Assembly: GCA_965231185.1 (NCBI GenBank)
Contig: OZ246422.1
Location: forward strand, 2,403,650-2,443,649
Direction: 5' to 3'
Length of the DNA stretch: 40,000 nucleotides
Origin: Tepidiformaceae bacterium
Lineage (GTDB): Bacteria; Chloroflexota; Dehalococcoidia; Tepidiformales; Tepidiformaceae
Shown: piece after piece, positions 2,198 through 24,127 of the stretch
How the letters are laid out: each line of letters begins with the position of its first letter
Position numbering within the stretch: position 1 is the first letter of the stretch
Notes under the pieces: model-generated
Databases searched by the model: none
The model's input: the letters and a program-made list of their open reading frames with translations, nothing else
What the model was told of the DNA's origin: nothing
Made by a program: the position numbers and the translations under genes

Positions 2198-3060
2198 CGT
2201 CGGTCCTCACCTAGTCGAAGCTGCGACACAGGGCGAGGCTCCGGCCAGAGAGTCAGCATCATCACACGGGCGTCGCTGGGCGGGGGTGGCATCTCGACTG
2301 CGCCTCGATCCTTCAGCCGAGCGAGCGCGAAGCTGGTTGATCGTGAGAACTGGGCGTCCGAACGCTGGCGTTCGATGCTGAACTGTCGCTCGACTTCCTG
2401 GCGGACGCTGCCGCCCTCCATCACTGGACACACCTTAGCGACGCGTGACATCACGTCGCTAATCGGGAGCTCTTCACCCACTCGCATCGTCTTTCGCATT
2501 GCGGACTCGAGGGCGACGCTGGGGTCCGGTACGAGCAACTCGCTGGCTTCTCCCTGGATGCCGGTCCCAAGCCGCCAACCGAATCCAAGATAGACAGCCC
2601 AGTACGCGAACTGTTGGCAGGAAGCGATGTTGACGAGTTCGAACGCGTTGGTTGTGCTTGGGCAGTCACGCTCAACGAGCGTGCGCCAGTTGTCCCTCAA
2701 ACTCAGTGGCGTCGACGTGGGTTGCGCTAGGAACCAGGCGATGGCAGGTGCTACCGAAACCTGCTGCGCATCAGCCGCTAGTTCCGGGAACAACAGCGTG
2801 TGCGCGATGACCGTGCGGATGTCGTCCGTGGCCGCAGCTTCGTCTGTCAACTTCCAGCGGTCGCCATCGGTCCGTTCGATCAGCCCCAGATTCGATGCCT
2901 CAGCAACGACCCCTGAGATGACATTCCTGGCTTCGCGGAGAGTGGGAGGTGACAGTAGCCCGTACACCTCCTCGGTCGACACGTTCGTACGCCCGCGAAG
3001 GTAACGGACGACCGCCTCCATGCGGTTCGGAACCGCTTCCCACGTCGTGACGACGCTCAT
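2194..3060 (-). CDS. dpdG: DpdG-like protein (288 aa, no catalytic motif recognised)
   Basis: Protein-like ORF MSVVTTWEAVPNRMEAVVRYLRGR..., with 4-nt start/stop overlaps to both neighbours (3057-3060 and 2194-2197). Assigned by position between the DEAH helicase and the P-loop NTPase. Confidence 0.45.
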   Translation of the reverse strand: MSVVTTWEAVPNRMEAVVRYLRGRTNVSTEEVYGLLSPPTLREARNVISGVVAEASNLGLIERTDGDRWKLTDEAAATDDIRTVIAHTLLFPELAADAQQVSVAPAIAWFLAQPTSTPLSLRDNWRTLVERDCPSTTNAFELVNIASCQQFAYWAVYLGFGWRLGTGIQGEASELLVPDPSVALESAMRKTMRVGEELPISDVMSRVAKVCPVMEGGSVRQEVERQFSIERQRSDAQFSRSTSFALARLKDRGAVEMPPPPSDARVMMLTLWPEPRPVSQLRLGEDRR

Positions 3061-8974: not shown

Positions 8975-9260
8975 TGGCTCTGGTGCTACCCGTTTCTAGA
9001 GAGTGGTTCAGCGCTTCGACTAGCTAGGCGGGCACCCTGGGGATTGTAGCGGGGAAGGCTCTGCGGTGCGCGACAGAGCACGGATGGTCTGCCTCGAAGA
9101 AGGCTGCGGGAGTGGGGCGGTTCGGTTTCAGCAGACGAGGACCTTGTCAGCAATGTTCAGATGCCTCAGAGTTGGCAGGTGTCGAGCAGTGGGTCGCCTA
9201 CGTCCCGCGCCGCTGTGGCGGGGGACGTAAACCTGGCGGCCCAGGAAGGAGTTGAGTCGG
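8975..9260. promoter_or_regulatory. Divergent control region between the dpdE-H and dpdB...dpdA operons, with a leader hairpin
   Basis: 286-bp non-coding spacer between divergent start codons. Hairpin: TACGTCCCGCGCC (9199-9211), loop GCTGT, GGCGGGGGACGTA (9217-9229), pairing 12 of 13. SD GGAAGGAG at 9244-9251 lies ahead of ATG 9261. Confidence 0.4.
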
Positions 9261-10430
9261 ATGGCAACGTATGTTCCCGCAATGCGCGCCAGGATCGGGG
9301 TTACCGAGTATTTCGTGTCGGTCATGACGCTGGGCGAGGCCGCCCGAATGATCGACTATGCCGAAGAAGTGGACGGCTGGACTTCGGAGACACCTCCGGA
9401 GTTGAAAATGCAGCGAAAGCTGAATAACCAGCGTGTCGAAAAGGAGATGGTGCCCTACCTCGTGGCGAACGATGACCACTTCTACTCTGCGCTGACAGTC
9501 GAGGTCCGCACTATGCGTCGTGGCTGCGAGGCCCTCAACTTTGAGGCAACAGCGCAGTTTCCCGGGGGCATCGACTTCGGCCAGTTGACCCTGGACGGGA
9601 CGGAGTCGCTTTACGCACTCGATGGCCAGCACCGGTTGAAGTCGATTGAAGTTGCGATCAGGCAGCGTCCTGAGCTCGCGGGGGAGCACATCGCCCTCAT
9701 CCTCGTGCCCTTCGACGACATCTCGAAGTCGCAGACCCTCTTCAGCGACCTCAACAGGAATGCGAAGGCCCCCTCCAAGTCCATCTCGCTTCTCTTTGCC
9801 CATCGCGATCCGCACGCGCGCATCGCCAAGCGCGTGTGCGACCAAGCTCCACTGCTGCGAGGTCGCATGAACCTGGAGAGCACGAGCCTCTCGACGAACG
9901 CCCGCCAGTTCATGACGCTCTCGACCTTGTACGAGATGGTACGGACACTCATCGGGGATCTCGCTGATGACATCACCGTTGAAGAGGAGGAGCGCCTCGC
10001 CAGTGATGTCGTCGAAGTAATCGACTGCCTGACCGACGCTATTCCGGCCTGGCGCATGGTCCGTGACGACGAAGAACACCCCGCCTATCTGCGGCAGCGA
10101 CAACTTGTCGGGCACGGTGTTGCCCAGCGAGCGCTCGCCGAAGTCGCGCGGCGCGCACGGGCGCAGTCAGAAACGGGGTGGAAAGATTCACTTAAGCGCT
10201 TAGGCGAGTGTTCAAAAAGCGGCGAGCCCGTGGTAGATTGGCAATTGACCAACCCGGGGTGGCAGAGCGTTGCTCTCCAAGGTGGGCGTGTGAACAACAC
10301 TTCGACCTCTATCCAGCTCCTCTCCGACGAGCTGTCCGGCCTGATCGGCCTTGAATTCGCGAAGGGCGCCCAGCAGGTTAGGCGAGGCGCTTCCCCACCC
10401 GCGGCCGTTCTAGCTCGCCCGCGCACGTAA
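9261..10430 (+). CDS. dpdB: DpdB, DGQHR-domain (DndB-like) partner of DpdA
   Basis: YALDGQHRLKSIEV (DGQHR motif) and QTLFSDLNRNAK. ATG 9261 is preferred over the track start at TTG 9252 because of SD spacing. Confidence 0.8.
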   Translation: MATYVPAMRARIGVTEYFVSVMTLGEAARMIDYAEEVDGWTSETPPELKMQRKLNNQRVEKEMVPYLVANDDHFYSALTVEVRTMRRGCEALNFEATAQFPGGIDFGQLTLDGTESLYALDGQHRLKSIEVAIRQRPELAGEHIALILVPFDDISKSQTLFSDLNRNAKAPSKSISLLFAHRDPHARIAKRVCDQAPLLRGRMNLESTSLSTNARQFMTLSTLYEMVRTLIGDLADDITVEEEERLASDVVEVIDCLTDAIPAWRMVRDDEEHPAYLRQRQLVGHGVAQRALAEVARRARAQSETGWKDSLKRLGECSKSGEPVVDWQLTNPGWQSVALQGGRVNNTSTSIQLLSDELSGLIGLEFAKGAQQVRRGASPPAAVLARPRT

Positions 10431-10442: not shown

Positions 10443-10886
10443 ATGTTCATAGACCGCGTCGAAGTCTCGTTCGATGCGGCACACCGGCTAATGGGCTATG
10501 ACGGCAAGTGCGCCTCTCCCCACGGGCATACCTACCGGGCGGAGGTCTTCGTCGGCAGGGCACACCTAGATGACCTCGGCCTCGCCGTTGACTTCGGTGA
10601 GATCAAGAAGCCGCTGAAGCGATGGATTGATGCTCACTGGGATCATGCGTTCCTTCTCAACGACCGTGATGACCTGCTGATAGGCGCTCTTCAAGTAATT
10701 CCGGAGAGCAAGCTGTATTGCTTCCCTGGCCTCAACCCCTCGGCTGAGGTGATGGCGCAAACCCTGTTTTGCGTGATGCGAGCCGAACTCGGGAGCAGTC
10801 TGCTCCGCGTCCGAATTTGGGAAGCGGGGCAGTACGCGGACTACGTCTTGTCCGAGGGCGACATCGACGAAGGAGAACACCTATGA
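10443..10886 (+). CDS. queD: 6-carboxy-5,6,7,8-tetrahydropterin synthase
   Basis: FDAAHRL...GKCASPHGHTY, the Cys/His-Gly-His motif typical of QueD. 147 aa. Its stop overlaps the queC start (ATGA). Confidence 0.9.
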   Translation: MFIDRVEVSFDAAHRLMGYDGKCASPHGHTYRAEVFVGRAHLDDLGLAVDFGEIKKPLKRWIDAHWDHAFLLNDRDDLLIGALQVIPESKLYCFPGLNPSAEVMAQTLFCVMRAELGSSLLRVRIWEAGQYADYVLSEGDIDEGEHL

Positions 10887-11620
10887 CTCGGAAACTTGGA
10901 GTAGTCCTTCTCTCAGGTGGGTTGGATTCGACCACCGTCGCAGCGCAGGCGGTTCAGGAAGGCTACGAAGTGGTCGCGGTCACCGTGCACTACGGACAGG
11001 TGCACAGCAGAGAACTGGATTCGGCAAAGAAGGTCGCCGAGGGGCTGGGACTTCGCCACGAGATCGTGGACGTCTCATTCTTCAGCCGGCTGGCGTGGTA
11101 TTCGGCTCTCACCAGCCCGGATCGCTTCGACATCCCCGAGGGGCGCTCTGTGGAAGAGATGGCTGCGGACATCCCAATCACCTACGTGCCAATGCGGAAC
11201 ACATTCCTGCTCGCCCTGGCATCGTCCTACCTTGAGAGCCACGCCCTGCAGGAACTGGAGCGTGATGGTGGCCCTTCGGAGCCGGTCACGGCGACCCTCT
11301 TCATCGCCGCGAACGCCATCGACTACAGCGGCTATCCGGACTGCCGGCCGGAGTTTTACGAGAGCCTGGCCGAGACGCTTCGCCTGGGGAGCAAGATAGG
11401 GACGCAGTACGGGGTGCCGTTTGAGATAGCGACTCCTCTCCTGCACATGACCAAGGCCGACATTGTGCGCTACGCCGTCGCCATAGATGCCCCGCTCGAT
11501 ATGACGTGGAGTTGCTATGAGGGCGGGGCTGTGCCGTGCGGTCGCTGCGACAGCTGTCTGCTCCGAGCCAAGGGCTTTGCTGAGGCTGGCGTGGCCGACC
11601 CCATCATGGCCTTGGTCTGA
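10883..11620 (+). CDS. queC: 7-cyano-7-deazaguanine (preQ0) synthase
   Basis: Start MTRKLGVVLLSGGLDSTT (PP-loop SGGxDS). C-terminal Cys cluster WSCYEGG..PCGRCDSCLLR. The upstream part of track ORF 10769.. is rejected; SD GAAGGAGAA lies ahead of ATG 10883. Confidence 0.9.
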   Translation: MTRKLGVVLLSGGLDSTTVAAQAVQEGYEVVAVTVHYGQVHSRELDSAKKVAEGLGLRHEIVDVSFFSRLAWYSALTSPDRFDIPEGRSVEEMAADIPITYVPMRNTFLLALASSYLESHALQELERDGGPSEPVTATLFIAANAIDYSGYPDCRPEFYESLAETLRLGSKIGTQYGVPFEIATPLLHMTKADIVRYAVAIDAPLDMTWSCYEGGAVPCGRCDSCLLRAKGFAEAGVADPIMALV

Positions 11621-11623
11621 GAC

Positions 11624-12331
11624 TTGCTGAAACTCGCTCGACTCCCGTCCGGCGAGCCGGAGATCTTCACCTCGATTCAGGGCGAGGGGGCTTCAGCGGG
11701 CCGGCCGAGCACCTTTGTCCGCCTGTCCCTCTGCAACCTCGCCTGTTCGTGGTGTGACACAAAGTACACGTGGGATTGGGAGCGCTACGACCCAAAAGTC
11801 GAGATCACGGCCCTCGACTGCAGTGCGGTCGCTGCCAAGGTCTCTGAACTCGGTGTGGAGAACGTGGTTGTCACTGGTGGCGAGCCACTCATGCAGCAGG
11901 CTCCACTGGCCGAGCTTGCGGGCGACCTCGCACAGCGGGGACACCGCATCGAAGTGGAGACGAACGGCACCTTTACTCCGCGGCCTTCACTAGAGCCCCA
12001 CATCGCGCAGTGGAATGTCTCGCCCAAATTGGCGAACTCGGCCAACCCGATAGAGCGCCGACAGTTGGACGAACCGCTGAAGTGGTTCGCCGCGTCCGAC
12101 AAAGCGTGGTTCAAGTTCGTGGTCGACACACCAGCTGACCTCGAAGAGGTCGACTGTGTGCTAGCCAGGTTCGGGGTTCCGACCGAGCGGGTCATCCTGA
12201 TGCCCCAGGGCACCTCACCCGTAGCCATCCAGCAACGCTCGACGTGGCTCGCCCCCCTGTGTAGTGATCGCGGCTACCGGTTCTCAACGCGCCTGCACAT
12301 CCTGATCTGGGGAGACAAGCGGGGATTCTGA
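11624..12331 (+). CDS. queE: 7-carboxy-7-deazaguanine synthase (radical SAM)
   Basis: IFTSIQGEG, CNLACSWCDTKYTW (Cx3Cx2C) and VVVTGGEPL. TTG start. Confidence 0.9.
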   Translation: MLKLARLPSGEPEIFTSIQGEGASAGRPSTFVRLSLCNLACSWCDTKYTWDWERYDPKVEITALDCSAVAAKVSELGVENVVVTGGEPLMQQAPLAELAGDLAQRGHRIEVETNGTFTPRPSLEPHIAQWNVSPKLANSANPIERRQLDEPLKWFAASDKAWFKFVVDTPADLEEVDCVLARFGVPTERVILMPQGTSPVAIQQRSTWLAPLCSDRGYRFSTRLHILIWGDKRGF

Positions 12332-12346: not shown

Positions 12347-13078
12347 GTGACTATTTTCGCGGAGGCGCACTCTGGAGAGGTGTCTCGAAGACACGCGGTG
12401 GGAGAGAAAGCATATCCTGCGCCTCTCAGCATGGAGCTAGGAGTCGAGTCTCAGCCGATGACAGGGCAGCGCGTCCTAGTGGTCAGCGCGTGCTCGAAAC
12501 GCAAGCTGGGTGACCGGGCGGCGGACCTAGGGTCTGACTCGCTGCTGCCCGCTCGTGAACGCTACGCGGGTCGGGCTCACTGCCGAGTGCGAGAAGCCAT
12601 CGATCGTTGGCGTCGGAGCCGTACTCAGGACCAGATCGAGTGGTCAATCGTCTCCGCTGGGCTTGGCTTGGTCGGCGAGGCTGCTCTGACACCCCTCTAC
12701 GAAGAAGCCTTTTCCGGCATGAGCCCGGCGGCGGCCAAGCGGCGTGGTCTTGAGCTTGAGCTGCCGAGCGGCCTGCGGCGCCGGCTGAAGGCGTTCGACA
12801 CGGCACTGTTCATCTTGCCGCTGGTATACCTCCACGCGGTTGGGGCACCCTTTGAGTCCTCCACTACTCAACTCTACTTCGCGTCCCCCCTGGTCGATCA
12901 GAAGTTCGGCCGGGCCGTAGTCGTCCCGTGCGGCATTGATGATGCACAAGAGTTGAGCGTGTCTCCGCGGGATGTTGGGGCCACCCGATTCGCATCGTTC
13001 GTCGACGATGCCATCGCGCATGGCCTCAACTCGGCACTCAGCACGTGGGACGTGCACCGCGAAGGAGGAGGAACGTGA
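12347..13078 (+). CDS. dpdC: DpdC-like protein (DUF6884-type; candidate enzyme converting preQ0-DNA to ADG-DNA)
   Basis: Sits between queE and dpdA. Core VLVVSACSKRKLG...YAGRAH...WSIVSAGLGLV...PLYEEAFSGMS resembles my memory of the DUF6884/DpdC pattern. Start uncertain (12347 GTG, 12431 or 12458 ATG). Its stop overlaps the dpdA start (GTGA). Confidence 0.5.
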   Translation: MTIFAEAHSGEVSRRHAVGEKAYPAPLSMELGVESQPMTGQRVLVVSACSKRKLGDRAADLGSDSLLPARERYAGRAHCRVREAIDRWRRSRTQDQIEWSIVSAGLGLVGEAALTPLYEEAFSGMSPAAAKRRGLELELPSGLRRRLKAFDTALFILPLVYLHAVGAPFESSTTQLYFASPLVDQKFGRAVVVPCGIDDAQELSVSPRDVGATRFASFVDDAIAHGLNSALSTWDVHREGGGT

Positions 13079-14274
13079 AGTTCTTCCTTCCTGACTGGGA
13101 TGACCGTGTCGACCCGGGATACGACTTCCTAACCGATAGGATGACCCTGCGGCGTGACCCCTACGAGGACGACCGCTACGCCCATGAACTCTTTGCTGAC
13201 CGGCTGTATGACGGAATCTTGGTCTCGCGCATGGCGCTATTCCGCAAGGGACGAAAGCGCGACCGGGTAGAGAAGGTCGGGATGAAGGCTTACCTGCGGA
13301 TGCCTGAGCAGTTGGAACTCTTCGGCGACTGTGGGGCGTTCGGGTACATCGAGCGACGTGATCCGGTCTTCGCGACGGAGGATGTCATCGATCACTATGA
13401 GCGACTGGGCTTCGACTACGGTGTCTCGGTCGACCACATTATTCTTCCGGAGTTTGAGGACCAGCGTGCCTACCGCTTCGACCTCACGCTCAGGAATGCT
13501 GAATCCTTCCTGACGATGCACCGCGAAGGGGGGTTCAACTTCACGCCGGTTGGAGCAGCCCAGGGCTGGGACGAGTGCACCTACGTCGAGGCTGCAAACG
13601 CCCTCGTTGAGATGGGTTACACCTACATTGCCATAGGCGGCCTTGCGCGGAGTAACACTCGCGACATCACCAACGTGCTGACGGCTGTCTCGGGAGTGAC
13701 CGCGGGACGGGCCCAGGTGCACGTCTTTGGCGTAGCCCGAGCCACCTTGCTGCCGCTGCTTATCGAGTTGGGGGTAACCAGCGCCGATAGTGCGGCACCG
13801 TTGCGACAAGCCTGGCTCTCAGCGAAGGACAACTACTACACGCCGGACGGAGCGTACGCGGCCATCCGAATCCCCGTGGCGAAAGAGGGAAGAGGCCTCA
13901 GCGGCTCACTCGTTGGTCGCAGTGAGGCTTCCTTTCAAGATCTCCAGCAAGCGGAACAGGAGGCGCTGGCTGCGGTGCGCGCGTTCGCAGAGCGCAGACT
14001 TGGGATGCGGGAAACGCTCAAGCGCATCAATGCCTATGACTCGATGCTAGGTGCCCGTCCGTACGAAAGCGACGCCCAGCGCAGAAGCCAACTCTACAAG
14101 GAACTCTTGCGCGCTCGTCCCTGGGATCGGTGCCCCTGCCCCATCTGCAGGGAACTTGGCGTTGAGGTGGCAATCTTCCGCGGAAACAACCGGAACAGGC
14201 GTCGTGGGTTCCACAACCTCTGGGTCCTCCGACGCCGTATCGAACGCGAACTCGGCGTGGGAGCCCTTCCGTGA
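13075..14274 (+). CDS. dpdA: DpdA, tRNA-guanine-transglycosylase-like DNA transglycosylase
   Basis: GTG 13075 preceded by SD GAAGGAGGAGG. TIM-barrel TGT-like body (FGDCGAFGY, SVDHIIL, IAIGGLA). TGT zinc site CPCPICRELG...FHNLW (CxCxxC...H). Genomic context with dpdB and queCDE. Confidence 0.85.
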   Translation: MKFFLPDWDDRVDPGYDFLTDRMTLRRDPYEDDRYAHELFADRLYDGILVSRMALFRKGRKRDRVEKVGMKAYLRMPEQLELFGDCGAFGYIERRDPVFATEDVIDHYERLGFDYGVSVDHIILPEFEDQRAYRFDLTLRNAESFLTMHREGGFNFTPVGAAQGWDECTYVEAANALVEMGYTYIAIGGLARSNTRDITNVLTAVSGVTAGRAQVHVFGVARATLLPLLIELGVTSADSAAPLRQAWLSAKDNYYTPDGAYAAIRIPVAKEGRGLSGSLVGRSEASFQDLQQAEQEALAAVRAFAERRLGMRETLKRINAYDSMLGARPYESDAQRRSQLYKELLRARPWDRCPCPICRELGVEVAIFRGNNRNRRRGFHNLWVLRRRIERELGVGALP

Positions 14275-14367: not shown

Positions 14368-14937
14368 GTGGCCGGCGCGTCAGGTGAGCCGAGCGGCGGC
14401 CTGCACCCGAAGGCGACTTCCTACGACTGCGCCATGAACCTTCACTCCTTCGTCCGTTGGAGACCGCGGGGACAGTCCTATAGGAGTGAAGGGTGTCGGG
14501 GCTGCGGGGCCCAGTTGATTGACTGGTCCAGGCTGGATCGGCACGACCTCGAGGACATCGACAACACCGTCTCATCCCTGCAGCGAGAGTTGATTAGGCA
14601 CGAGTTCTGGAACAGGCCCCTAGACGCCAGGGCCCTCAATCATGCGAACAGGAAGGGTCGTGGCGGACTGCGCGAGGACGCTGTCCACCGACTGAGCAAG
14701 TACCTCGGCAGACCGAGATCAGAGTTGTCTCGTGACGGCATGCAAACGCCGTTCGCAGGCAACGTTATCTATTACGCCCAGCACGCCACGGCAACATGTT
14801 GTCGGAAGTGCGTCGAGGCATGGCATGGGATCGACCGGGGAAAGCCTCTGGCCTCTGACGAGGTCAGTTACTTGACCGAGTTGGTGATGCACTACATCGA
14901 GAGGAGACTTCCTATCAAAGGCAGTATCTGCCTGTGA
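14368..14937 (+). CDS. DUF4186-like Cys-motif protein with N-terminal CxxC extension
   Basis: C-terminal half DGMQTPFAGNVIYYAQHATATCCRKCVEAWHGI matches my memory of the DUF4186 signature (QHATATCCRxC..WH). Extra CRGCGAQLIDW near the N-terminus. SD-like GAGGGGG lies ahead of GTG 14368. Confidence 0.55.
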   Translation: MAGASGEPSGGLHPKATSYDCAMNLHSFVRWRPRGQSYRSEGCRGCGAQLIDWSRLDRHDLEDIDNTVSSLQRELIRHEFWNRPLDARALNHANRKGRGGLREDAVHRLSKYLGRPRSELSRDGMQTPFAGNVIYYAQHATATCCRKCVEAWHGIDRGKPLASDEVSYLTELVMHYIERRLPIKGSICL

Positions 14938-15132: not shown

Positions 15133-17502
15133 TTGATGGTGGGAGACTCTGCAGGGAGCCTCTCGCTGTCTCATCGGTGGTGGGGGAATCGCCACTACGG
15201 GTATGTATGCATGCAGTTGGCCCAATTCGTTGAGTTCGCTTCAGGGTCGCTCCACATCGATCTGAGCGAGGGGTCACCGCACAGGGAGTTGCTGTCGGCC
15301 AGGCCCCGCAACCTCCACATCGTCGCCGGACCAGGCACCGGGAAGACTTCTGCGCTTGCGCTGCTCGCCCTCAAGGCGATCTTCGTCGACGGTCATCCCA
15401 CAGCAGCGATTATCGCTACCACGTTCACTCGCAAGGCTGCCCGAGAGCTGGCTTCCCGGATCACCGAAGGCCTGCACGAACTGCTCCGGGCGACGCAGCA
15501 ACCGATCGACGCGCCAGCCTTCGACGTGTCGCGAATTCGCATCGGAACGATCGACCAAATCTGTCACAGCGCGCTTGTCGAGCGTCAACTGGGCGTTCTA
15601 GCGGACCAACTCGTACAGAACGGAACGATGACGCAGGCGGCATTCAATAGCCAAATTGCGCGCGCTGGCACCAACGACGAACTGCGGGTTCCCCTGCTCG
15701 CCGAGATGGAAGAACTCTTCGGTGGCGGCCGAGGCGGAGCACGCCTCTCGATGATCCGAGCCCGGCTCTCGACGGTGCGTGAGCGCATAGGACAGGACCA
15801 AATCGATAGGGAGCTCTGGTCGGCGTCGGGAGATGGGCCCTCAGCCGTAGCTCAGGTGCTGAGTGCCTACGATGACCAGTTGGCCGGCGACGGACGCCTC
15901 GACTTCATTTCGGTCGAAGAGGAGTTCCGAGGTGGGCTCGCCGACGGCTCGCTCTCCGACTGGCTCGAGCCAGTGAGAGTGTTGCTCGTCGATGAGTACC
16001 AGGACACAAACGCCCTCCAAGAGTCGATCTACCAGCCTGTCGCGGCGCACGCGACCGACAACGGCGGCTGGATCGCACTCGTCGGTGATGACGACCAGTC
16101 GCTCTTCCGATTCCGCGGCGCAACCGTCGAGTTGTTCGTGGACGCTCCATCAAGATTCGAGCAGGCCGTCTCGGGCATGCCGATTGAGACGCTGCCGCTC
16201 AACATCAACCGGCGCTCGTCGCTGCCTATCGTCAACTTCGCCAACCGTTACGTACGGCTCGACAGTGCGTATCAGGCTGCGCGCGTACCCAGTAAGCCCG
16301 ATCTCGTCGGCTCTAACGCACGCAACAATTGGTCGATTTCCGACGGAATCCCCGTTCTCGGACTATTCAGGCCCAACGCGGACGAACTCGGAGACGAAGT
16401 GGCCCGTCTAATCGAAGCGATTCTTGGGGATGGTCTCGACGTTCCGGGTGCCGCGGAACCGATCCGGCAGCAGCAACCGGGTGATATTGCTGTGATCGGC
16501 TTCTCAACGAGGCGGAATTCCGGCGACCGACGACGCACCTACGACTTCCTCGAGGACCGACTGTCCGCGCTCGACCCGGCCGTAACTCTATTCAACCCCC
16601 GCGGCGTGCAGTTGCATGAGATGCCGTCGGTGCAGCGACTGCTCGGGCTCGCGCTCCTATGCCTCGATAGCGAGGGTAGCCACGCGCCTCCCGCCATTGA
16701 GCGGGAAGTGCGGCCCCGGATCGGGTCGTGGCGTGAAAAGGCGGCCGACTTTCTTGCCTCTGCTCCAGAGCCGAACACCCCGCACGGGCTCGATGACTTC
16801 GTTTCTGCTTGGCAAGATCGCCAACCTCAGCGCTCTGGGGGTTGGCCAAGAGCGTTCCCGGTGATGGAGCTACTACACGAACTCTCGACTTGGCTGCCGG
16901 AGTTGCACCGGAGCCCAGGCGTCATCTACTGGGAGGCGCTTACGCGTACCCTCGCGAGCGTTTCCTCCTTCTACGGAGCGAATGCCGGACTGATTCGCGC
17001 TAACGATTGGGATGCTGCCGTCACGCGGCTTTACCATCGGTTCTTCATCCCCATTGCGCGCGGCGAAGTGGATCTCGACGAAGACGTTCTCGAGTCCCTT
17101 CCCCTCGATGCGATCAATGCGCTGACGGTACACCAGGCAAAAGGGCTCGAATTTCCGGTCTGTCTGGTTGACGTCGGCTCCGACTTCCGCAGGAACTTCG
17201 CCGTGCAAGCGTTCGCGCGATTTCCCCGGCCCGACAAGACCTTCGCCCCGTACACACTCGAGGACAGATTGCGGCCCTTCGCCACCGGCGCACCTCCGAC
17301 GATGGAGCGGGAGGCGCTCGATCGGGCCTTCGACGATATCGTGCGCCGCAGCTTCGTCGCTTGCACGCGGGCTCAGCACATGTTGGTGCTCTTCGGCTGT
17401 GGAGAGCCCGGAGCGGGCCCCAATAGGGTGCCCAATGTGGGCACGGGATGGTGCCGCGATGGCACTAACGGGTGGGATTCACTAGGGGTCACACTGATAT
17501 GA
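15133..17502 (+). CDS. UvrD/Rep-family superfamily-1 helicase
   Basis: IVAGPGTGKTS (motif I), LLVDEYQDTNALQ (II), LVGDDDQSLFRFRGA (III), TVHQAKGLEFPVCLV (V), FVACTRAQHMLVLF (VI). Start uncertain (15133 TTG, 15136 ATG or 15211 ATG). Confidence 0.85.
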   Translation: MMVGDSAGSLSLSHRWWGNRHYGYVCMQLAQFVEFASGSLHIDLSEGSPHRELLSARPRNLHIVAGPGTGKTSALALLALKAIFVDGHPTAAIIATTFTRKAARELASRITEGLHELLRATQQPIDAPAFDVSRIRIGTIDQICHSALVERQLGVLADQLVQNGTMTQAAFNSQIARAGTNDELRVPLLAEMEELFGGGRGGARLSMIRARLSTVRERIGQDQIDRELWSASGDGPSAVAQVLSAYDDQLAGDGRLDFISVEEEFRGGLADGSLSDWLEPVRVLLVDEYQDTNALQESIYQPVAAHATDNGGWIALVGDDDQSLFRFRGATVELFVDAPSRFEQAVSGMPIETLPLNINRRSSLPIVNFANRYVRLDSAYQAARVPSKPDLVGSNARNNWSISDGIPVLGLFRPNADELGDEVARLIEAILGDGLDVPGAAEPIRQQQPGDIAVIGFSTRRNSGDRRRTYDFLEDRLSALDPAVTLFNPRGVQLHEMPSVQRLLGLALLCLDSEGSHAPPAIEREVRPRIGSWREKAADFLASAPEPNTPHGLDDFVSAWQDRQPQRSGGWPRAFPVMELLHELSTWLPELHRSPGVIYWEALTRTLASVSSFYGANAGLIRANDWDAAVTRLYHRFFIPIARGEVDLDEDVLESLPLDAINALTVHQAKGLEFPVCLVDVGSDFRRNFAVQAFARFPRPDKTFAPYTLEDRLRPFATGAPPTMEREALDRAFDDIVRRSFVACTRAQHMLVLFGCGEPGAGPNRVPNVGTGWCRDGTNGWDSLGVTLI

Positions 17503-18542
17503 GCACATTTCAGCCGAGACGGACCGGGCGAGTGATCCCTGTCTACAGCCTGACCGGCGATCTTCTGAACTACGAGCGGTGCCCATTGCAATACCGACTC
17601 TTCACGCGCACGGGCGTGCGCGAGTCCCACCCGACCCAGCGCTGGTACGGTCAGTTCTTGCATCGAGGAATGCGCGTTGCGTACGAACAATGGAAGGACG
17701 AGTCCGTCGGTCCCGAAATGTACGAGTGGGAGTCGGATACTGGAAATGAACCATTCCAGTCGTTGATAGACGAGGTGATGCGTACTCTCCGGGCCGAAGG
17801 TTTGTATCGGCCTGGCAACATGGGTGATGTGGCCGAGAGGCGCCTATTGCGGACCGTACGCTTGCTGGGAACACACCTCTTCCCCCTCATCGAGAGGTCG
17901 GAAGTGAGACTAGATGCGGTCCGCGAATACTCCGCTGGTGCAGCAAGTCTGTACCAAGTCACGGGGGTCGTAGACGTACTGGCAGTCGCACGTTTCGGAG
18001 AGCCGGGCAAAAACGTATTCGTCGATCTGATCCGCGATGGCCTAGAGCAGGCGGGGCACGCAGTGGGCACCGTCGGGGAGATCGTTGTTGACTATAAAGG
18101 CATCACGCGCGAGCGACTGGAACGCGACTACGAAGCTGCGCGCAGCCAGATACTGACCTACGGATGGCTCCGGAACCGCGAAGCTGACGAGGACGTGGTT
18201 CGCGCCGGCGTACTCTGCACCGTCGACGATCTGCTGCCTGACGGCGCGGACGCGAATGTCACGCCGCAGGGAGACGAGGCCAGAGAACTCCTCGGTGCCG
18301 CGATCAGTGCCGTGCCGGTGTCGAAAAACCTCATCGCCGCCGGTACAAGCTTCTTCGATTCCACGGTCGCTCAGATCGAGAACTCCCTCGCTAGCGAGTC
18401 GGTCGGCAACCTTCCGGCAGTGTGGGAGCCACGGCCGGAGCGGCGCACGTGTGTCACATGCGATGCGAGGTGGCATTGCCCGGCGAGTGACATGGGAGAC
18501 GGTGTGCCACCGACTCGTCCCCTGGCTCCGTCGGCACCCTAG
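17499..18542 (+). CDS. Cas4/AddB-like PD-(D/E)XK nuclease with predicted 4Fe-4S Cys arrangement
   Basis: ATG 17499 overlaps the helicase stop (ATGA). N-terminal Cys NYERCPLQYRL, IVVDYKG (D/ExK), QILTYGWL (QxxxY), C-terminal CVTCDARWHC (Cx2Cx5C). Confidence 0.8.
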   Translation: MSTFQPRRTGRVIPVYSLTGDLLNYERCPLQYRLFTRTGVRESHPTQRWYGQFLHRGMRVAYEQWKDESVGPEMYEWESDTGNEPFQSLIDEVMRTLRAEGLYRPGNMGDVAERRLLRTVRLLGTHLFPLIERSEVRLDAVREYSAGAASLYQVTGVVDVLAVARFGEPGKNVFVDLIRDGLEQAGHAVGTVGEIVVDYKGITRERLERDYEAARSQILTYGWLRNREADEDVVRAGVLCTVDDLLPDGADANVTPQGDEARELLGAAISAVPVSKNLIAAGTSFFDSTVAQIENSLASESVGNLPAVWEPRPERRTCVTCDARWHCPASDMGDGVPPTRPLAPSAP

Positions 18543-18546: not shown

Positions 18547-19728
18547 GGACAGTCTGAACAACTCGCCAGAGCGAGTGAGCAGATGGGATCATGGCGCGTG
18601 AACCAGAGAGGGAGGGCGCGCCCATGCATCAGCCGACGTTCGCCAGCGTGCAGTTCGAGCAGAAGAAGCGGAAGACGCGCCGCGAGTTGTTCCTCGAACG
18701 CATCGACAGCCTCGTGCCCTGGGAGGAACTGGAGGCGCGCAGCGAGCCTCACTACCCGAGGGCGGGACGGGGACGGCGGCCCTACCCGCTGGCGGTGATG
18801 CTGCGCAGCCACTGCGTCCAGCTCTGCTACAACCTCAGCGACCCCGCCATGGAGGACCTCCTCTACGAGGCCAAGTCGGTGCGTCGCTTCTGCGGTCTCA
18901 CCTTGACCGAGGCCATTCCCGACGAGAGCACCATCCTCCACTTCCGCCACCTGCTGGAGCGCCACGACCTGGGGACGAAGCTGTTCGAGACAATCAACGC
19001 CCACCTCGCGAAGCGGGGCCTGCGCCTGCGCGAGGGCACGATCGTGGACGCCAGCATCATCGAGGCGCCCTCGTCGACGAAGAACCGCCAGCGCGCGCGC
19101 GACCCGGAGATGCACCAGACGAAGAAGGGGAACGAGTGGCACTTCGGCATGAAGCTGCACATCGGCGTGGACGCCGACAGCGGGCTGGTGCACAGCATGA
19201 GCACGACGGCGGCGAACGTGGCCGAGGTGACGGAGGCGCACCGCCTGCTGCACGGCGAGGAGCGGGAGGCGTACGGCGACGCGGGCTACCAGGGCGTGGA
19301 GAAGCGTCCCGAGCAGGCGCGGTCGGAGGTCGCGTGGCGCGTGACCATGCGGCCCGGCCTGAGGCGGCTGCTTGAGCCGAGGAGCGAGGCGGCGCGGGCG
19401 GAGCGAGCGAAGGCGTCGGTGCGGGCGAAGGTGGAGCACCCCTTCCTCGCGGTGAAGCAGCGCTTCGGCTACGACAAGGTGCGCTACCGCGGTCTGGCGA
19501 AGAACCGCGAGCGGCTGGCGCTGCTGCTGGGCTTGACGAACCTGCTGCGAGCCGAGCCCCAACTCGCCTGACCCGGGGAGCAGTGCGTCCCCCGCGCCCG
19601 TCGAAGCACGACGGGAAGGCGAAAGCGGCCCCCGACCTCCCCCGGCCCCCTCCCCTGCCGTCCTCCTTGTCCAATACAAACTGCCGGGGAGCAAATCGCC
19701 GCCGCCAGCCCACTTGCTCAGAGGATTC
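18547..19728 (+). mobile_element. IS5-family insertion sequence (about 1.18 kb) with CTAG target-site duplication
   Basis: Left end GGACAGTCTGAACAACTCG versus reverse-complemented right end GAATCCTCTGAGCAAGTGG are imperfect IRs, and both resemble the E. coli IS5 IR GGAAGGTGCGAA(C/T)AAG. CTAG occurs at 18543-18546 and again at 19729-19732. Confidence 0.85.
18624..19571 (+). CDS. IS5-family DDE transposase
   Basis: MHQPTFASVQFEQKKRKTRRELFL...GRRPYPL..MLR...YNLSD.AMED...DPEMHQTKKGNEWHFGMKLHIGVD...GDAGYQG...VEHPF. Long colinear similarity to E. coli IS5 transposase, from memory. SD GAGAGGGAGGG lies ahead of ATG 18624. Confidence 0.9.
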   Translation: MHQPTFASVQFEQKKRKTRRELFLERIDSLVPWEELEARSEPHYPRAGRGRRPYPLAVMLRSHCVQLCYNLSDPAMEDLLYEAKSVRRFCGLTLTEAIPDESTILHFRHLLERHDLGTKLFETINAHLAKRGLRLREGTIVDASIIEAPSSTKNRQRARDPEMHQTKKGNEWHFGMKLHIGVDADSGLVHSMSTTAANVAEVTEAHRLLHGEEREAYGDAGYQGVEKRPEQARSEVAWRVTMRPGLRRLLEPRSEAARAERAKASVRAKVEHPFLAVKQRFGYDKVRYRGLAKNRERLALLLGLTNLLRAEPQLA

Positions 19729-19969: not shown

Positions 19970-22246
19970 CTAACGCTCCGCGCCGGCCGGCTCCGCCTCC
20001 CGCTCCCGCTCCACTGCCCACTCGAAGAGGGAGATGGACGCGGGCGCGGGCCTGCGGCCGCGGCGCTTCGGCTCGGCCGGCTCCTCGGCCATGAACTCCG
20101 CCCACGAGAACAGCGACCGCTGCCGCTCCGGGGTTTCGTCCTCGGCCTCTCCGCCCACCGGAAGGGCGCTACGGCCGTCACCGCTGGCGTGAACCTCGAC
20201 GACCAGCGGCTCGGGCGCAGCCCACTCGGCGTCGACCAGCAGCGCCTCGGCGTCCGCCGCGACCTGCTGGGCCTGGGCGAAGACCGACTCGATCGAGCCG
20301 GCGTCCTCCTCGCCCGCGACGATCTTCCTCGCCAGGGCGAGCATGAAGTCGTCGCCGTCGTCGCCGTAGGCGGCGAGGCCGTCCTCCGGTAGCTCCCCTT
20401 CAACCGCCAGCGACGATTGAAGCTTCTTCGCCACCAGCTGGAGGGCGTCCGCCTGCAGGGTGTTCCGGTAGGCCATGAAGACGATTTGGACGGGCTCGGT
20501 CTGGCCGATGCGCCAGGAGCGCCTTGACGCCTGCCGCATGGTGTAGACGGAGTAGTCCGTCTCGTACCAGCAGATGGTGGGGAAGTCGACGAGGTCGAGG
20601 CCCGTCTGCACCAGGCGCGGGTGGCAGACGAGCACGTCGACGCCCTCCTCGACCCGCTGCGCCACCCACGCCTCGCGACGCTCGGGAGCGACGGCGTCCG
20701 CCTTCATCACCGCGACCTTGAAGCCGTGGCGAGTGAGGAAGTCGTCCATGCGCTCCGTGATGTCGCGGGTTCCCGTATGGGTGGCGTAGACGAGCACCCG
20801 GCGCCCCTGAAGCCGCTCCGCGGCGACGAGGTCGACGAGCGCCTGCTCCTTGGGGTAGAGCTTCTCCTCGGAGAGGGGAGGCACCTGGATGAGCACCTCC
20901 TCCGACTCCGGGTCGAAGACCGTCTCGCCGCGCGTGCAGCCGTCCGGGTAGGCCAGGAGCGTCTGCAGGTAGGTGGCCAGCAGCCGCTTCGAGCCCTTCG
21001 CCAGGGCCTCGGTGAGGGCGGCGCGCAGCGTCTCGAAGACCGAGTCGTAAGCGCTTCGCTGTGAGAGCCCCGTCGAATCCTCCTCGTCGTCCATCGACGA
21101 CAGCAGCACCCGCTCCTCGTAGGGCGGCAGCCCGGAGGCCACGTCCGAGAGGCGCAGGAAGATGCTGGCGCCGATGAGGTGGAAGAGCGCCGCGGGGGCG
21201 AGCCCCGGCCGCTCCCGGATGACCTTGCGGTACTTCCGGCGGCGGCTCGTGCGCCCGTCCTCGAGCGACTCGCCGTCGTCGCGACCGACGGTGTGCTCGA
21301 CGAAGCCGTAGCGCTCGATCCAGCGGCTCTCCTCCCCGCGCCCGAACTCAGACCGGATCTCCGGGGAGAACCGGTAGAGGAGATGGAAGAGCGTGGAGGA
21401 GTAGCCGCCCATGAGCGTGCCCGAGAGGCTAAGCGACTTGCCGCAGGCGTCGGCGAGGATGCCGGCGGCGATGCCCTGGGCGGAGCCGCGGCCCTTGTAC
21501 TCGTGCACCTCGTCACTCACCAGCAGGTCGAAGAAGCCCCGCAGGTGGTGCTTCACGTAGTCCGCGAGCGGGTAGCGCTTCGGCCCCGAGGGGTCCGCCT
21601 TCCAGAGGGCCGAGCCGCACTCGTCGCAGCTCCGCTTCCTGCGGCCGAGGTCCTTCAGGGTCAGGGGCAGCCCGTCCTTGTCGACGATCGGCGTGAAGCA
21701 GTCCGGGCAGCAGGGCACGCGGAACGGCTCCAGGGTTTCCTCGTCCCGCACGAGCCGGCCGTCCACGGTCGCCCAGCGCTCGACGACGGCGGGCAGCCAG
21801 CGGTACGAGAGTTTTGCACGCTCCCGCGACATGACGGCAAAGAGCGGCCCCGGCCCGTGGGAGAGGCGCAGGCGCTCCAGGTCGGTGATGGAGGCGACGA
21901 TGACGGCGCGCGCGTCGGGGACGGTGTCCTCGACCTCCCGCTTCCACTTGCGGGTGAGGTGCGGCGGGCAGAGGACGAGCACCCGGCGGAAGCCGGCCAT
22001 GTGGGCGGCGGAGGCCGCGATGAAGGTCTTGCCCGTACCCATCTCGCCCACGACGGTCGTGCCGCGGTGGGTGTCGAGGGAGAGGGCGGCGGCGCGGATG
22101 GCGTCCGCCTGCGCCCCCAGCGGGGAGCGCAGCAACTGCGGGAGGGGCCGCCCGTTCTCCGAGGGCCGGTAGCGGGGCGGATAGGACTCCACCACGCGTT
22201 GGGCGATGGCGTCGCGATAGGTGTCGATGAACTCGGCGAGGTCCAT
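19970..22246 (-). CDS. SNF2/DEAD-like helicase of mobile-element type with an internal Zn-ribbon insert
   Basis: GEMGTGKTFIAASAA (motif I), LVSDEVHEYKG (DEVH), LVQTGLDLVDF and QASRRSWRIGQ (V/VI). Insert CPDCFTPIV...CDECGSALW. SD GAAGGAGA lies ahead of ATG 22246. Confidence 0.85.
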   Translation of the reverse strand: MDLAEFIDTYRDAIAQRVVESYPPRYRPSENGRPLPQLLRSPLGAQADAIRAAALSLDTHRGTTVVGEMGTGKTFIAASAAHMAGFRRVLVLCPPHLTRKWKREVEDTVPDARAVIVASITDLERLRLSHGPGPLFAVMSRERAKLSYRWLPAVVERWATVDGRLVRDEETLEPFRVPCCPDCFTPIVDKDGLPLTLKDLGRRKRSCDECGSALWKADPSGPKRYPLADYVKHHLRGFFDLLVSDEVHEYKGRGSAQGIAAGILADACGKSLSLSGTLMGGYSSTLFHLLYRFSPEIRSEFGRGEESRWIERYGFVEHTVGRDDGESLEDGRTSRRRKYRKVIRERPGLAPAALFHLIGASIFLRLSDVASGLPPYEERVLLSSMDDEEDSTGLSQRSAYDSVFETLRAALTEALAKGSKRLLATYLQTLLAYPDGCTRGETVFDPESEEVLIQVPPLSEEKLYPKEQALVDLVAAERLQGRRVLVYATHTGTRDITERMDDFLTRHGFKVAVMKADAVAPERREAWVAQRVEEGVDVLVCHPRLVQTGLDLVDFPTICWYETDYSVYTMRQASRRSWRIGQTEPVQIVFMAYRNTLQADALQLVAKKLQSSLAVEGELPEDGLAAYGDDGDDFMLALARKIVAGEEDAGSIESVFAQAQQVAADAEALLVDAEWAAPEPLVVEVHASGDGRSALPVGGEAEDETPERQRSLFSWAEFMAEEPAEPKRRGRRPAPASISLFEWAVEREREAEPAGAER

Positions 22247-22372
22247 GGTGTGTCTCCTTCTCTCTTGGCAGGGACGACACCAGGGCCTGGGCGCACTGCG
22301 CCCACCCCGTGCGGGAGGGGACGCTCAGTGCAAGAGCCATGGAAACGTCCCCATTGAGGTGGCTGGTGCGAA

Positions 22373-22393
22373 GCCCCCGGTTGCTCCGGGGGG
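22373..22393 (-). repeat. Intergenic GC hairpin (member of a recurring spacer-hairpin set)
   Basis: GCCCCCGG, loop TTGCT, CCGGGGGC, in the 208-bp spacer between the methyltransferase and the helicase. Confidence 0.5.
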
Positions 22394-22454
22394 CCTCGTT
22401 TGCGGATCGGCGTTGACCCGTCGGGAGCCGCCAGATGGAGGCGGCTGGAAGAAA

Positions 22455-23492
22455 TCAGGCGGCGATGTCGGTGACCTGTCCGCTGTCCAGGTCGAGGGCG
22501 ACGACGGTCGTGCGCAGGCGCTCGCGGAAGGTCTCCTTCGTGGGCGTGCGCTCGGCCAGGACCATCTCCTTCGAGGTACGGCCCTTGACGAGGATGCGGC
22601 TGTCCCCGGCCTCCAGCTGGAGGTTGTCGAGGAAGCCCGCCGCCACGAGCATGGCCAGGTGGCCGCGCCGCAGAGGCATGAGTGGACGGGTGCGCTGGTC
22701 CTGGGCGGGCCAGAGCAGGTCCATGACGGCGGTGTTGGCCCAGAGGCCCGAAGTCCTCGCCTCGGCTGCCGCCGCCACGGGGTCGATGGTGCGCCTGGCG
22801 AAGAGCACGTCCCCCGCGGGCGTGGCGGTGGCCACGTAGAGCGGGTAGCGGCGCGGCCCGAGCTCGGGAGCCTCGTCCGCCGCCCACTGGTGGATGCGCT
22901 CCTCGGCGTAGGCGTCGAGGAAGACCTCCGCCTTGCGGTAACCGAGCAGCACGACCTGGTCGTAGGCCTCGCGCTCCGGCTGCGGGAAGGCCCAGCAGTC
23001 GATGCGCGAGAAGTGCGAGGCGAGGTACCTCGCCGACACCGCCAGCCGCTGCCGCGGGACGACGAGGACGAGCAGGCCGTCCTCCGCCAGGTAGCGGGTG
23101 CAGTGGGTGAGGAAGGCGTGCTCGACGCGCTTCTCCTCGCCCGAGTCCCAGTCGTAGGGAGGGTTCAGGTAGAGGAGCCCGAAGGCGCCGTTGGCGATTG
23201 ATGTGGCGAAGAGGTCGGTCCCGAGGACGCGGTCGAGGCGGTGCTTCGCCTCCTCCGCGCGCTCGGTGTGAAGCTCCACGCCGAAGGTTTCGACGGGAGC
23301 GGCGTGTGGCTTTCCCAGGCCCTCGGCCAGCCGGGAGAGGGCGTCACCCTCACCGCAGCAGGGGTCGAGGATCCTGAGCGTTTCGTCGTTGCGGGCGTAG
23401 GCGGCGGGCGGTTGGATCAGCTCCGCGATCAGGTCCGTCACCCTGGGCGGGGTCGGGTAAAACCCTCCCTTTGCCTGTGCAGCCAGTCTCAT
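22455..23492 (-). CDS. Orphan SAM-dependent DNA methyltransferase (NPPY, N6-adenine/N4-cytosine type)
   Basis: Start MRLAAQAKGGFYPTPP, with SD AAGGGGA ahead of ATG 23492. ILDPCCGEGDAL (motif I) precedes LLYLNPPYDW (motif IV). No adjacent restriction endonuclease. The 128-codon N-terminal extension in the track ORF is rejected (Arg/Pro/Gly-rich). Confidence 0.85.
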   Translation of the reverse strand: MRLAAQAKGGFYPTPPRVTDLIAELIQPPAAYARNDETLRILDPCCGEGDALSRLAEGLGKPHAAPVETFGVELHTERAEEAKHRLDRVLGTDLFATSIANGAFGLLYLNPPYDWDSGEEKRVEHAFLTHCTRYLAEDGLLVLVVPRQRLAVSARYLASHFSRIDCWAFPQPEREAYDQVVLLGYRKAEVFLDAYAEERIHQWAADEAPELGPRRYPLYVATATPAGDVLFARRTIDPVAAAAEARTSGLWANTAVMDLLWPAQDQRTRPLMPLRRGHLAMLVAAGFLDNLQLEAGDSRILVKGRTSKEMVLAERTPTKETFRERLRTTVVALDLDSGQVTDIAA

Positions 23493-24127
23493 TTCGGTTC
23501 CCCTTTCGCATGGGTGGTCGGTGTGGATGGTTCCTCGCGCGGCAGCGTCAGCAATCCCGACGCAACCGCCACGGAGAGGTCGTCTCTGAGGGCCTCTGCG
23601 TCCGGGTCGCAGCGGTAGGCGACGACGCCCGCCGATTGCAGCGGCGTGATCTCTTCCCGCGCCAGTCCTCGCCGCCAGAGCCAGTCCGCCCAGGAGCGGT
23701 GCAACGGCAGGGGGCTGCGCTTGTCGAGGAAACGGTGGTGCAGGGCGGGAGCCTCCTCCTCGCTCTTCGCCAGGAGGAGGAAGCCGTCCCGCTCGAAGGC
23801 GTACTCCGCCAGCTTCGTGTAGACGAGCGCGTGCCAGCCGCCGGAGACGGGCAGGCGCGCGATCTTCGTCGTCCACGTCCCGACCGTCTCGGGGGGGACG
23901 TGACAGCGCTGGTAGCTCCCGGAGAGGGCCATGCCGTCCGCTCCGCGGATGAGGTGGGCGACGTCCGGCGGCTGCTTGAGGAGGGACGCCCAGATCGCCT
24001 TGAGGGCGGTCTGGGAGCCCACCATGGAGAGGAACCAGAGACCGCCGCTGTCGGGGTCCCTGGCGAAGGCGTCGGCCGTGGCGGAGAAGCCGCCGGCGCT
24101 GACGGTGTAGAGGTCGTCGGTTGTCAC
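23489..24127 (-). CDS. Hypothetical protein (212 aa) translationally coupled to the methyltransferase
   Basis: GTG 24127 overlaps the upstream stop (GTGA), and its own stop overlaps the methyltransferase ATG (ATGA). Sequence VTTDDLYTVSAGGFSATADAFARDPDSGGLWFLSMVG... shows no recognised motif. Confidence 0.6.
   Translation of the reverse strand: MTTDDLYTVSAGGFSATADAFARDPDSGGLWFLSMVGSQTALKAIWASLLKQPPDVAHLIRGADGMALSGSYQRCHVPPETVGTWTTKIARLPVSGGWHALVYTKLAEYAFERDGFLLLAKSEEEAPALHHRFLDKRSPLPLHRSWADWLWRRGLAREEITPLQSAGVVAYRCDPDAEALRDDLSVAVASGLLTLPREEPSTPTTHAKGEPK

Follow-up and report, generated by a model that had tools for sequence, protein, structure and literature searches.

The question raised by this locus is what a helicase gene and a nuclease gene, encoded back to back, contribute to the island for 7-deazaguanine modification of DNA (Dpd island) in which they are found. 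The two genes, hereafter Hel and Nuc, lie in a 40,000-nucleotide stretch of the genome of a Tepidiformaceae bacterium (Chloroflexota; contig OZ246422.1, positions 2,403,650–2,443,649), which was analyzed as a whole and is referred to as the window. An earlier note, made from the letters of the window, had regarded the pair as a non-canonical appendage of the island, perhaps an effector that degrades unmodified DNA. By comparing the window with other genomes, we found that Hel-Nuc is a dedicated, recurrent partner of DpdA, the DNA guanine transglycosylase, and of a DUF6884/DpdC-like protein. The role we favor, at about even chances, is that of an arm which degrades DNA within a self/non-self system of the Dpd type.

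The first gene encodes a superfamily 1 (SF1) helicase of the UvrD/AddA type. Its open reading frame begins further upstream, but the likely start is ATG 15211, because close homologs (e.g., that of locus L001) align from residue 1 of this version. The match to the Pfam family UvrD-helicase was strong (E = 2.3e-36), with AAA_19 (1.1e-12) and a weak UvrD_C as the only other domains, and no PDDEXK domain is present on the protein. The complete SF1 motif set reported in the earlier note was borne out: Walker A (G42, G44, K45, and T46, with K45 at 15343–15345), DEYQD (residues 261–265, at 15991–16005), GDDDQ..FRGA, and the later SF1 motifs are invariant across 30 homologs and at least 95% conserved in 64. 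The best NCBIfam match was AddA (addA_Gpos), at 91.5 bits against a cut-off of 707.65; the helicase is therefore a member of no named helicase family. AddAB, RecB, PcrA, UvrD, Rep, and helicase IV proper were all rejected in this way, as every NCBIfam score fell far under its cut-off. AddA was also the best sequence match in the PDB (3u44_A, 1.3e-17). An AlphaFold2 model (pLDDT 88.7), searched with Foldseek, matched UvrD, PcrA, and Rep at E values of about 1e-24, and the highest query template modeling (TM) score, 0.62, was obtained with AddA (4ceh_A).

The second gene encodes a PD-(D/E)XK nuclease with the four cysteines of AddB and Cas4, which are predicted to hold a 4Fe-4S cluster. As had been described from the letters, it is coupled to the helicase gene by an ATGA overlap, which we read directly from the sequence (ATG 17499–17501, TGA 17500–17502), and its Pfam match is PDDEXK_1 (E = 6.9e-10). 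The key residues are C28 (17580–17582), D159 (17973–17975), D198-Y-K200 (D198/K200 at 18090–18098), Q217..Y221, and C318-x2-C321-x5-C327 (18450–18479); they are invariant or nearly so in 26 sequences (K200 in at least 90%) and at least 95% conserved in 64. A search of the PDB with the Nuc profile gave no significant sequence match, and the fold search alone was informative. The AlphaFold2 model (pLDDT 84) found as its best match the C-terminal nuclease domain of AddB (4ceh_B, E = 2.4e-6, TM score 0.50 by query and 0.17 by target), followed in Foldseek by AdnA, Cas4 SSO0001, RecE, and MGME1. Only the nuclease/Fe-S part of AddB is present in Nuc, without the helicase-like scaffold. At its C-terminus, after a low-confidence tail, Nuc almost always ends in Ala, Val, or Ile followed by Pro (...APSAP in the window, at 18528–18539; ...KIP or ...TVP in methanogens), a possible docking peptide to which the helicase or a different partner would bind.

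The Nuc family is small and discrete: only 157 of the 1.84 billion cluster representatives match at E ≤ 1e-30. Its members fall into two tiers, a close clade at 45%–85% identity, to which the window belongs, and a broad clade at about 30% distributed over many bacterial and archaeal phyla; the helicase relatives show the same two tiers. Among the matches listed, the 120 helicase homologs measured 746–800 amino acids, with the exception of two fragments, the 120 Nuc homologs measured 291–414 amino acids, and none was fused. No Nuc homolog was found by tblastn in 50,697 phage genomes and there is no PHROG for Nuc, and on these two results a phage origin of Nuc was rejected.

The genomic context of the pair was scored in a set of 80 genome loci encoding a Nuc relative, using profiles built from these loci and a distance limit of 10 kb. 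A helicase homolog stands immediately upstream of Nuc in practically every locus with sequence there. Outside a Methanobacteriales-type clade, treated below, DpdA was found within the limit in 31 of 39 loci. Five of the eight loci without DpdA are contigs shorter than 9 kb, and the other three are L032, L065, in which the helicase is disrupted, and L058, in which DpdE, DpdF, and DpdG follow the pair. The gap between DpdA and the pair has a median of about 70 bp and is at most 500 bp in 22 of 32 gaps, and the order of the genes varies, DpdA being upstream of the pair in 16 loci and downstream in 13. The DpdA proteins of these loci pass the NCBIfam model with 346–416 bits (cut-off 200). All close-clade loci that reach past the pair are dpd-linked, while the 7.97-kb contig of L001 is uninformative.

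DUF6884 belongs to the same association. DpdA and DUF6884 both occur within a few kilobases of Hel-Nuc in the window, in 31 of the genome loci, in close-clade L002, L081–L085, L088, and L089, and in plasmid pB41S5. In Planctomycetota, Acidobacteriota, Nitrospirota, Bacillota, and others, DUF6884 is fused to the N-terminus of DpdA (575–600 amino acids; e.g., L011, L026, L015, L017, L018, L049, L057, and L080), and in archaea and Chloroflexota the unfused DUF6884 is a small gene abutting the helicase. The fusion provides a Rosetta-stone link between the two modification proteins in systems that have no DpdB. The DndB-like DpdB itself is rare, being present in five of the 31 DpdA-linked loci and absent within 10 kb in the other 26.

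These linkages bear on the alternative offered by the earlier note, in which Hel-Nuc is an independent two-gene defense module merely sharing the island with dpd. Such independence could be suggested by the 270-bp intergenic region that the pair has upstream in the window, by the DUF4186 gene that separates it there from dpdA, and by methanogens and L032, which have the pair but no dpdA nearby. However, DpdA accompanies the pair in 31 of 39 loci, in many bacterial and archaeal phyla and in both orders, and some of these loci have a DUF6884–DpdA fusion next to the helicase; such linkage of a rare gene greatly exceeds what chance would give. Moreover, the pair matched no stand-alone PADLOC system: there was no GajA, GajB matched in part, and Cas4 reached an E value of about 0.002. 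We find an independent module hardly credible and rejected it on the linkage statistics. As for the DUF4186 gene, tblastn gave zero matches in the 80 loci, and close-clade L085 has no gene between DpdA and the helicase. It was therefore rejected as a member of the module, being absent from all related loci searched, and looks like an insertion specific to the window.

Three architectures were distinguished. The minimal type consists of the DUF6884–DpdA fusion, Hel, and Nuc, without DpdB, and is sometimes joined by HerA/NurA-like genes, as in L090 (Thermodesulfovibrio yellowstonii) and in L027 and L062 (Poribacteria). The compact type comprises the preQ0 synthesis genes, DUF6884, DpdA, DpdB, Hel, and Nuc with integrase or recombinase flanks and no DpdD–K; examples are L081, L083, L085, L088, and the Bradyrhizobium plasmid pB41S5, in which RefSeq names DpdA and DpdB and calls the pair merely "DEAD/DEAH box helicase" and "PD-(D/E)XK nuclease family protein." The full type includes further Dpd genes: L033 and L010 read DpdJ-DpdK-DpdD-x-Hel-Nuc, L089 has a convergent set of DpdD, a phospholipase D (PLD) protein, and a DpdJ-like protein, L058 has DpdE, DpdF, and DpdG with the pair, and the window has DpdE–H. 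The other members of the close clade are mostly of the compact type. In minimal and compact systems, Hel-Nuc is the sole nuclease. The description of the pair as dpd-linked and non-canonical is strongly supported by the comparison of genomes. Neither protein matches any DpdA–K model of NCBIfam or PADLOC. The wording "added or substituted" was also apt, as the compact islands carry the pair without DpdD–K and others carry it together with DpdD/J/K or DpdE/F/G/H.

Two groups of loci deserve separate mention. In L090, L027, and L062, HerA (DUF87) and the gene adjacent upstream stand in one operon with DUF6884, DpdA, Hel, and Nuc; the upstream gene gives a weak NurA match in L027, and the 621-amino-acid gene of T. 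yellowstonii has no Pfam match. HerA and this gene are a second helicase-nuclease pair of the resection type, and T. yellowstonii, which is cultured, could serve as a model. In L086, a 38-kb plasmid of Picosynechococcus sp. PCC 73109 (NZ_CP014001), Hel-Nuc is surrounded by PIN/RHH and AbiEii modules; a short tRNA-guanine transglycosylase (TGT, about 307 amino acids), some 5 kb from it, lies between two DEAD/DEAH helicases, a different TGT-helicase arrangement.

The mechanism we propose is as follows. DpdA, with or without DpdB and together with the Que enzymes, would mark host DNA with dPreQ0/dADG. The two genes would encode a heterodimeric "mini-AddAB," with the ATP-driven SF1 helicase as the motor and the stand-alone AddB-type Fe-S PD-(D/E)XK nuclease as the cutter. 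Presumably loaded at ends or nicks, the putative complex would unwind and cut unmarked DNA, distinguishing it from modified DNA. Minimal and compact systems would have no nuclease besides it, whereas it would be additional in islands that also hold DpdE–H, such as that of the window.

Several observations favor a DNA-degrading role. The pair is the only nuclease of the minimal and compact architectures, and its catalytic residues and Fe-S ligands are strictly conserved. It is closely linked to DpdA and DUF6884, its folds match AddB and AddA, and it is missing from the phage genomes searched, phages being users of DpdA for modification only. Its neighbors are typical defense-island genes, namely HerA/NurA, AbiEii, toxin-antitoxin modules, and integrases, as well as type I restriction-modification-like genes, the last recognized by sequence inspection only. 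Finally, in L002, on the Dehalococcoidia chromosome OZ242262, an IS256-family transposase (7726–8970) splits the helicase while the modification genes persist and the DpdB..DpdA-Hel-Nuc island is otherwise intact, a tolerated restriction-minus, modification-plus state. The helicases of L037, L063, and L065 are also split.

Other observations weigh against this assignment. The window, L010, L033, and L089 also have a canonical restriction set (DpdE–H or DpdD/J/K), so that a second effector is not obviously needed there. The pair mostly shares the orientation of the modification genes, and in the close clade it is co-transcribed with them and not with dpdD–K; no modified-base-reading domain was identified. 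About 41 loci of Methanobrevibacter, Methanobacterium, and one metagenome-assembled genome (MAG) of the Methanomicrobiales have an intact pair with neither DpdA nor DUF6884 inside the 10-kb limit, and L032 has it without dpdA; the pair is therefore not inherently toxic in the absence of the mark. Also, given the 26 DpdA-linked loci without DpdB, a role of the helicase on the modification side fits equally well.

In this last reading, the helicase and Nuc would replace or assist the DpdB ATPase, opening or processing the duplex for the exchange of guanine for preQ0 by DpdA, while restriction would be left to other genes or to none. Where DpdB is missing, no ATPase other than the helicase accompanies DpdA, except for HerA in a few loci, and close-clade pairs directly follow dpdA/dpdB in the same orientation. 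Nucleases occur in modification arms elsewhere, an example being the SspB nickase. In the Salmonella system, the activity of DpdA requires the DpdB ATPase (PMC10164549, as summarized in PMC12839542). However, the window and the close clade already have DpdB besides the pair, the strictly conserved nuclease site of the processive AddB type is hard to square with base exchange, and the helicase has been disrupted by an insertion sequence (IS) while the modification genes were retained. Published accounts describe many phages in which DpdA serves modification only (PMC6884629), and the absence of the pair from phage genomes, those with DpdA included, argues that it is not needed for the modification chemistry. 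We consider a helper of modification unlikely; if true, it would explain the working of DpdA in systems that have no DpdB. This role and the degradation of unmarked DNA are not mutually exclusive, as one complex of DpdA, DUF6884, Hel, and Nuc could both write and police the mark. An attack of the type IV kind on deazaguanine-modified phage DNA was also considered and judged unlikely, since preQ0 genes are found with the module in the window, in those close-clade loci whose flanks are long enough (L002, L081–L085, and L088), and in several distant loci.

The methanogen loci suggest what the pair does in the absence of Dpd. Their pair is only about 28% identical to that of the window. In Methanobrevibacter (L021 and others), it has a core synteny with HypA/B, a MrfA-like helicase (DEAD+MZB), DUF169, a MobA-like gene, a Mur ligase, Rad50, and a Mre11-like gene, and in Methanobacterium (L048, Methanobacterium sp. 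MZD130B) and the Methanomicrobiales MAG, it forms a co-directional four-gene operon, Mre11-Rad50-Hel-Nuc (L048, L059, and L072). HerA-NurA holds the same operon position beside Mre11-Rad50 in thermophilic archaea. The pair can thus work without Dpd, and its basal activity is most likely an AddAB-like processing of DNA ends; in these archaea, Hel-Nuc may take the place of HerA-NurA as the end-resection enzyme. In a rough midpoint-rooted neighbor-joining tree of concatenated Hel and Nuc, the methanogen clade was nested among DpdA-linked lineages of archaea and Chloroflexota. According to the earlier note, orthologs occurring as syntenic core genes in relatives lacking dpd would speak for housekeeping repair. 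This is in part what the distant methanogens display, with Rad50/Mre11 and no dpdA within 10 kb, but it does not extend to the close clade, whose loci are dpd-linked wherever they reach past the pair.

From this, the pair could be seen as an accessory of end resection or repair, an enzyme like AddAB or HerA-NurA recruited to Dpd islands to mend breaks that the system itself inflicts, to resolve DpdA-DNA intermediates that have stalled, or to clear DNA cut by another effector, and not as a discriminating restriction enzyme. The Mre11-Rad50 operons and the Methanobrevibacter synteny with the MrfA-like helicase are consistent with it, as are the HerA/NurA-like genes beside the pair in T. yellowstonii and Poribacteria, the structural matches to AddB, AddA, and RecB, and the coexistence of the pair with complete DpdD/J/K sets. 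Yet the minimal and compact systems hold no other nuclease that it could assist, and there is little reason for a repair enzyme to follow a single rare modification enzyme so tightly through different phyla, in many cases at a distance of no more than about 70 bp. We therefore regard a repair accessory as rather unlikely and retain the degradation of unmarked DNA as the favored role. A broader proposal, which seems to us improbable, is that the DUF6884–DpdA fusion, Hel, and Nuc would make up a self-contained restriction-modification machine of three to four genes and of a new class, a processive AddAB-like helicase-nuclease gated by sparse 7-deazaguanine marks that act as a chemically written "Chi" and spare self DNA. 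One lineage of it would have been domesticated in Methanobacteriales as a resection enzyme associated with Mre11-Rad50, or the recruitment would have gone in the opposite direction.

The island in the window is a canonical Dpd island, and its features are given in the table. All four genes of the restriction operon exceeded their NCBIfam cut-offs (DpdE 839, DpdF 759, DpdG 120, and DpdH 511 bits). DpdH is partial, with the N-terminal 735 amino acids in an open frame that runs off the left edge; DpdI, DpdJ, DpdK, and DpdD were not seen within the window and may lie off it. The DUF6884-like product matched an HMM of DUF6884, built from the DpdA-fused and DpdA-adjacent domains of relatives, at E = 2e-12, and the PADLOC DpdC model weakly (2.6e-4). 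DUF6884 is treated as the DpdC domain in PMC11701544, which also provides the definition of the two motifs, and in PMC12235509.

Features of the window (positions are those of the 40,000-nucleotide stretch)
Feature	Position	Strand	Details
Dpd restriction operon	2–8974	−	DpdH 2–2206; DpdG 2194–3060; DpdF 3057–5585; DpdE 5582–8974
DpdB (DndB-like, DGQHR)	9252–10430	+	Pfam DndB 8.4e-72; NCBIfam DGQHR domain
preQ0 synthesis genes	10443–12331	+	QueD 10443–10886; QueC 10769/10917–11620; QueE 11624–12331; Pfam PTPS, QueC, Radical_SAM
DUF6884-like (DpdC-like)	12347–13078	+	243 amino acids; motifs CxxxK (ACSKRK) and SAxxG (VSAGLG)
DpdA (DNA guanine transglycosylase)	13045–14274	+	NCBIfam NF041059 430 bits, cut-off 200; PADLOC DpdA 3e-120
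DUF4186 gene	14368–14937	+	Pfam DUF4186 3.4e-25; two Cys-rich motifs; between dpdA and the helicase
Hel, SF1 UvrD/AddA-like helicase	15211–17502	+	763 amino acids from ATG 15211; open reading frame from TTG 15133, stop TGA 17502
Nuc, PD-(D/E)XK nuclease	17499–18542	+	347 amino acids; AddB/Cas4-type four-Cys (predicted 4Fe-4S); open reading frame also opens at GTG 17472
IS transposase (DDE_Tnp_1 + DUF772)	18591–19571	+	directly after the Nuc stop; marks the island edge
SF2 helicase and DUF6094 methyltransferase	19970–23876	−	ResIII/Helicase_C, 758 amino acids; 473 amino acids
DnaG-type primase	28984–30027	−	Zn-ribbon + Toprim
Secreted-type repeat protein	33651–37925		1424 amino acids; fn3, many leucine-rich repeats, Calx-beta
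Cadherin/Big_9 repeat protein	38054–39976		640 amino acids

Hel and Nuc lie downstream from dpdA and, as the earlier note had stated, are co-oriented with it; the placement of the pair at the island edge in that note stood as well. The island has 62% GC. Along the window, the GC content is 0.60–0.67 up to about 19 kb (0.60–0.63 over the plus-strand block at 9–18 kb) and 0.69–0.75 from about 19 to 33 kb; this step, together with the transposase after Nuc, puts the pair at the edge. A search for inverted repeats did not define the boundaries of the IS, and a promoter and terminator scan gave 0 promoters, with terminators at chance level. Beyond the IS, at 70% GC, the SF2 helicase and DUF6094 methyltransferase genes and, further on, the primase lie in a stretch that looks like a separate integrated mobile element or plasmid-like region. 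The two large repeat proteins at the right end, the first in a region where the GC content dips to about 0.60–0.63 (33–36 kb), are unrelated to Hel-Nuc.

In the literature, we found no description of an association of DpdA with UvrD, Cas4, or a helicase-nuclease, an earlier passing mention not being excluded, and neither PADLOC nor NCBIfam has a model of the association. The pair, an AddAB-like helicase-nuclease split over two genes, is probably an undescribed working part of Dpd-type 7-deazaguanine systems and their conserved partner. It goes together with DpdA in many phyla of bacteria and archaea, frequently without any other Dpd restriction gene. A 2025 survey describes dpd islands "lacking the restriction operon" in genera including Acidovorax and Archangium (PMC12235509). 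The Acidovorax locus L041 has the pair with DpdA, and the Archangium contig L074 has the pair and is too short to show DpdA. With the pair taken into account, these islands are possibly complete systems. Systems of three to eight genes would be a far simpler setting in which to study how the 7-deazaguanine mark is read and unmarked DNA destroyed, and they offer a compact, testable handle on the unsolved mechanism of Dpd restriction. The Mre11-Rad50-Hel-Nuc operons of methanogens, in turn, suggest a candidate substitute for HerA-NurA in mesophilic archaea.

Compared with known systems, Hel-Nuc resembles several and coincides with none of those considered here. With Gabija it shares a UvrD-like helicase and partial PADLOC matches to GajB, but these reach at most 77 bits and mostly cover the motif II–III region only. 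Gabija was rejected, in agreement with the earlier note, as there is no adjacent GajA (OLD/Toprim); the sole Toprim protein in the window is the DnaG-type primase, 10 kb away on the opposite strand. With the Cas4 of CRISPR systems, Nuc shares the PD-(D/E)XK core, one N-terminal and three C-terminal cysteines, and the Foldseek match to SSO0001, but it measures 347 amino acids against about 200, and its Pfam family is PDDEXK_1 and not Cas4. CRISPR Cas4 was rejected because the PADLOC Cas4 match has an E value of 0.002 at 16 bits and the neighbors are dpd genes and an IS. No cas genes are among the annotated genes of the window, in which no systematic cas scan was made.

The canonical Dpd system (DpdA–K; Thiaville 2016, Yuan 2018, Gedara 2023) occupies the same islands and presumably follows the same logic, in which a 7-deazaguanine self mark is combined with helicases and a nuclease for restriction. 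It differs in its own proteins, as its nuclease is the PLD-type DpdK and its helicases are of superfamily 2 (DpdE, DpdF, and DpdJ), whereas neither pair protein is recognized by its models; many pair-bearing systems lack DpdB and all of DpdD–K. In AddAB, AdnAB, and RecBCD, as in the pair, a UvrD-like SF1A motor is combined with a PD-(D/E)XK nuclease, and the four cysteines of Nuc match the Fe-S "staple" of AddB. The AddB and AdnA nuclease domains are the top fold matches of Nuc, AddA is the best match of the helicase by PDB sequence and query TM score, and the methanogen pair is found in Mre11-Rad50 operons. Unlike AddAB, however, the pair has one function per subunit, with no nuclease domain on the helicase and no inactivated helicase scaffold on Nuc, and shows no sign of a Chi-reading domain. 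Its size of 763 + 347 amino acids, against about 1230 + 1160 in AddAB, bears out the judgment of the earlier note that it is far smaller than the housekeeping enzymes; outside Methanobacteriales, the pair is linked to DpdA and not to housekeeping loci. The HerA-NurA pair that accompanies Mre11-Rad50 has the same operon position as the methanogen Hel-Nuc, which suggests an analogous resection role, but the folds are unrelated, HerA being an FtsK-like hexamer and NurA RNase H-like.

The nearest published concept is that of the UvrD-Cas4 fusions (pfam12705 + UvrD), tied to type III restriction-modification and Dcm-Vsr, and of the unfused operon of UvrD and a Cas4-like gene in Clostridiales (Hudaiberdiev et al. 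2017, PMC5704561), where no TGT or DpdA link is mentioned. These fusions have the same domain combination and a similar tie to DNA-modification-based defense, whereas Hel-Nuc consists of two translationally coupled genes, and its partner is not a methyltransferase but the base-exchange enzyme DpdA.

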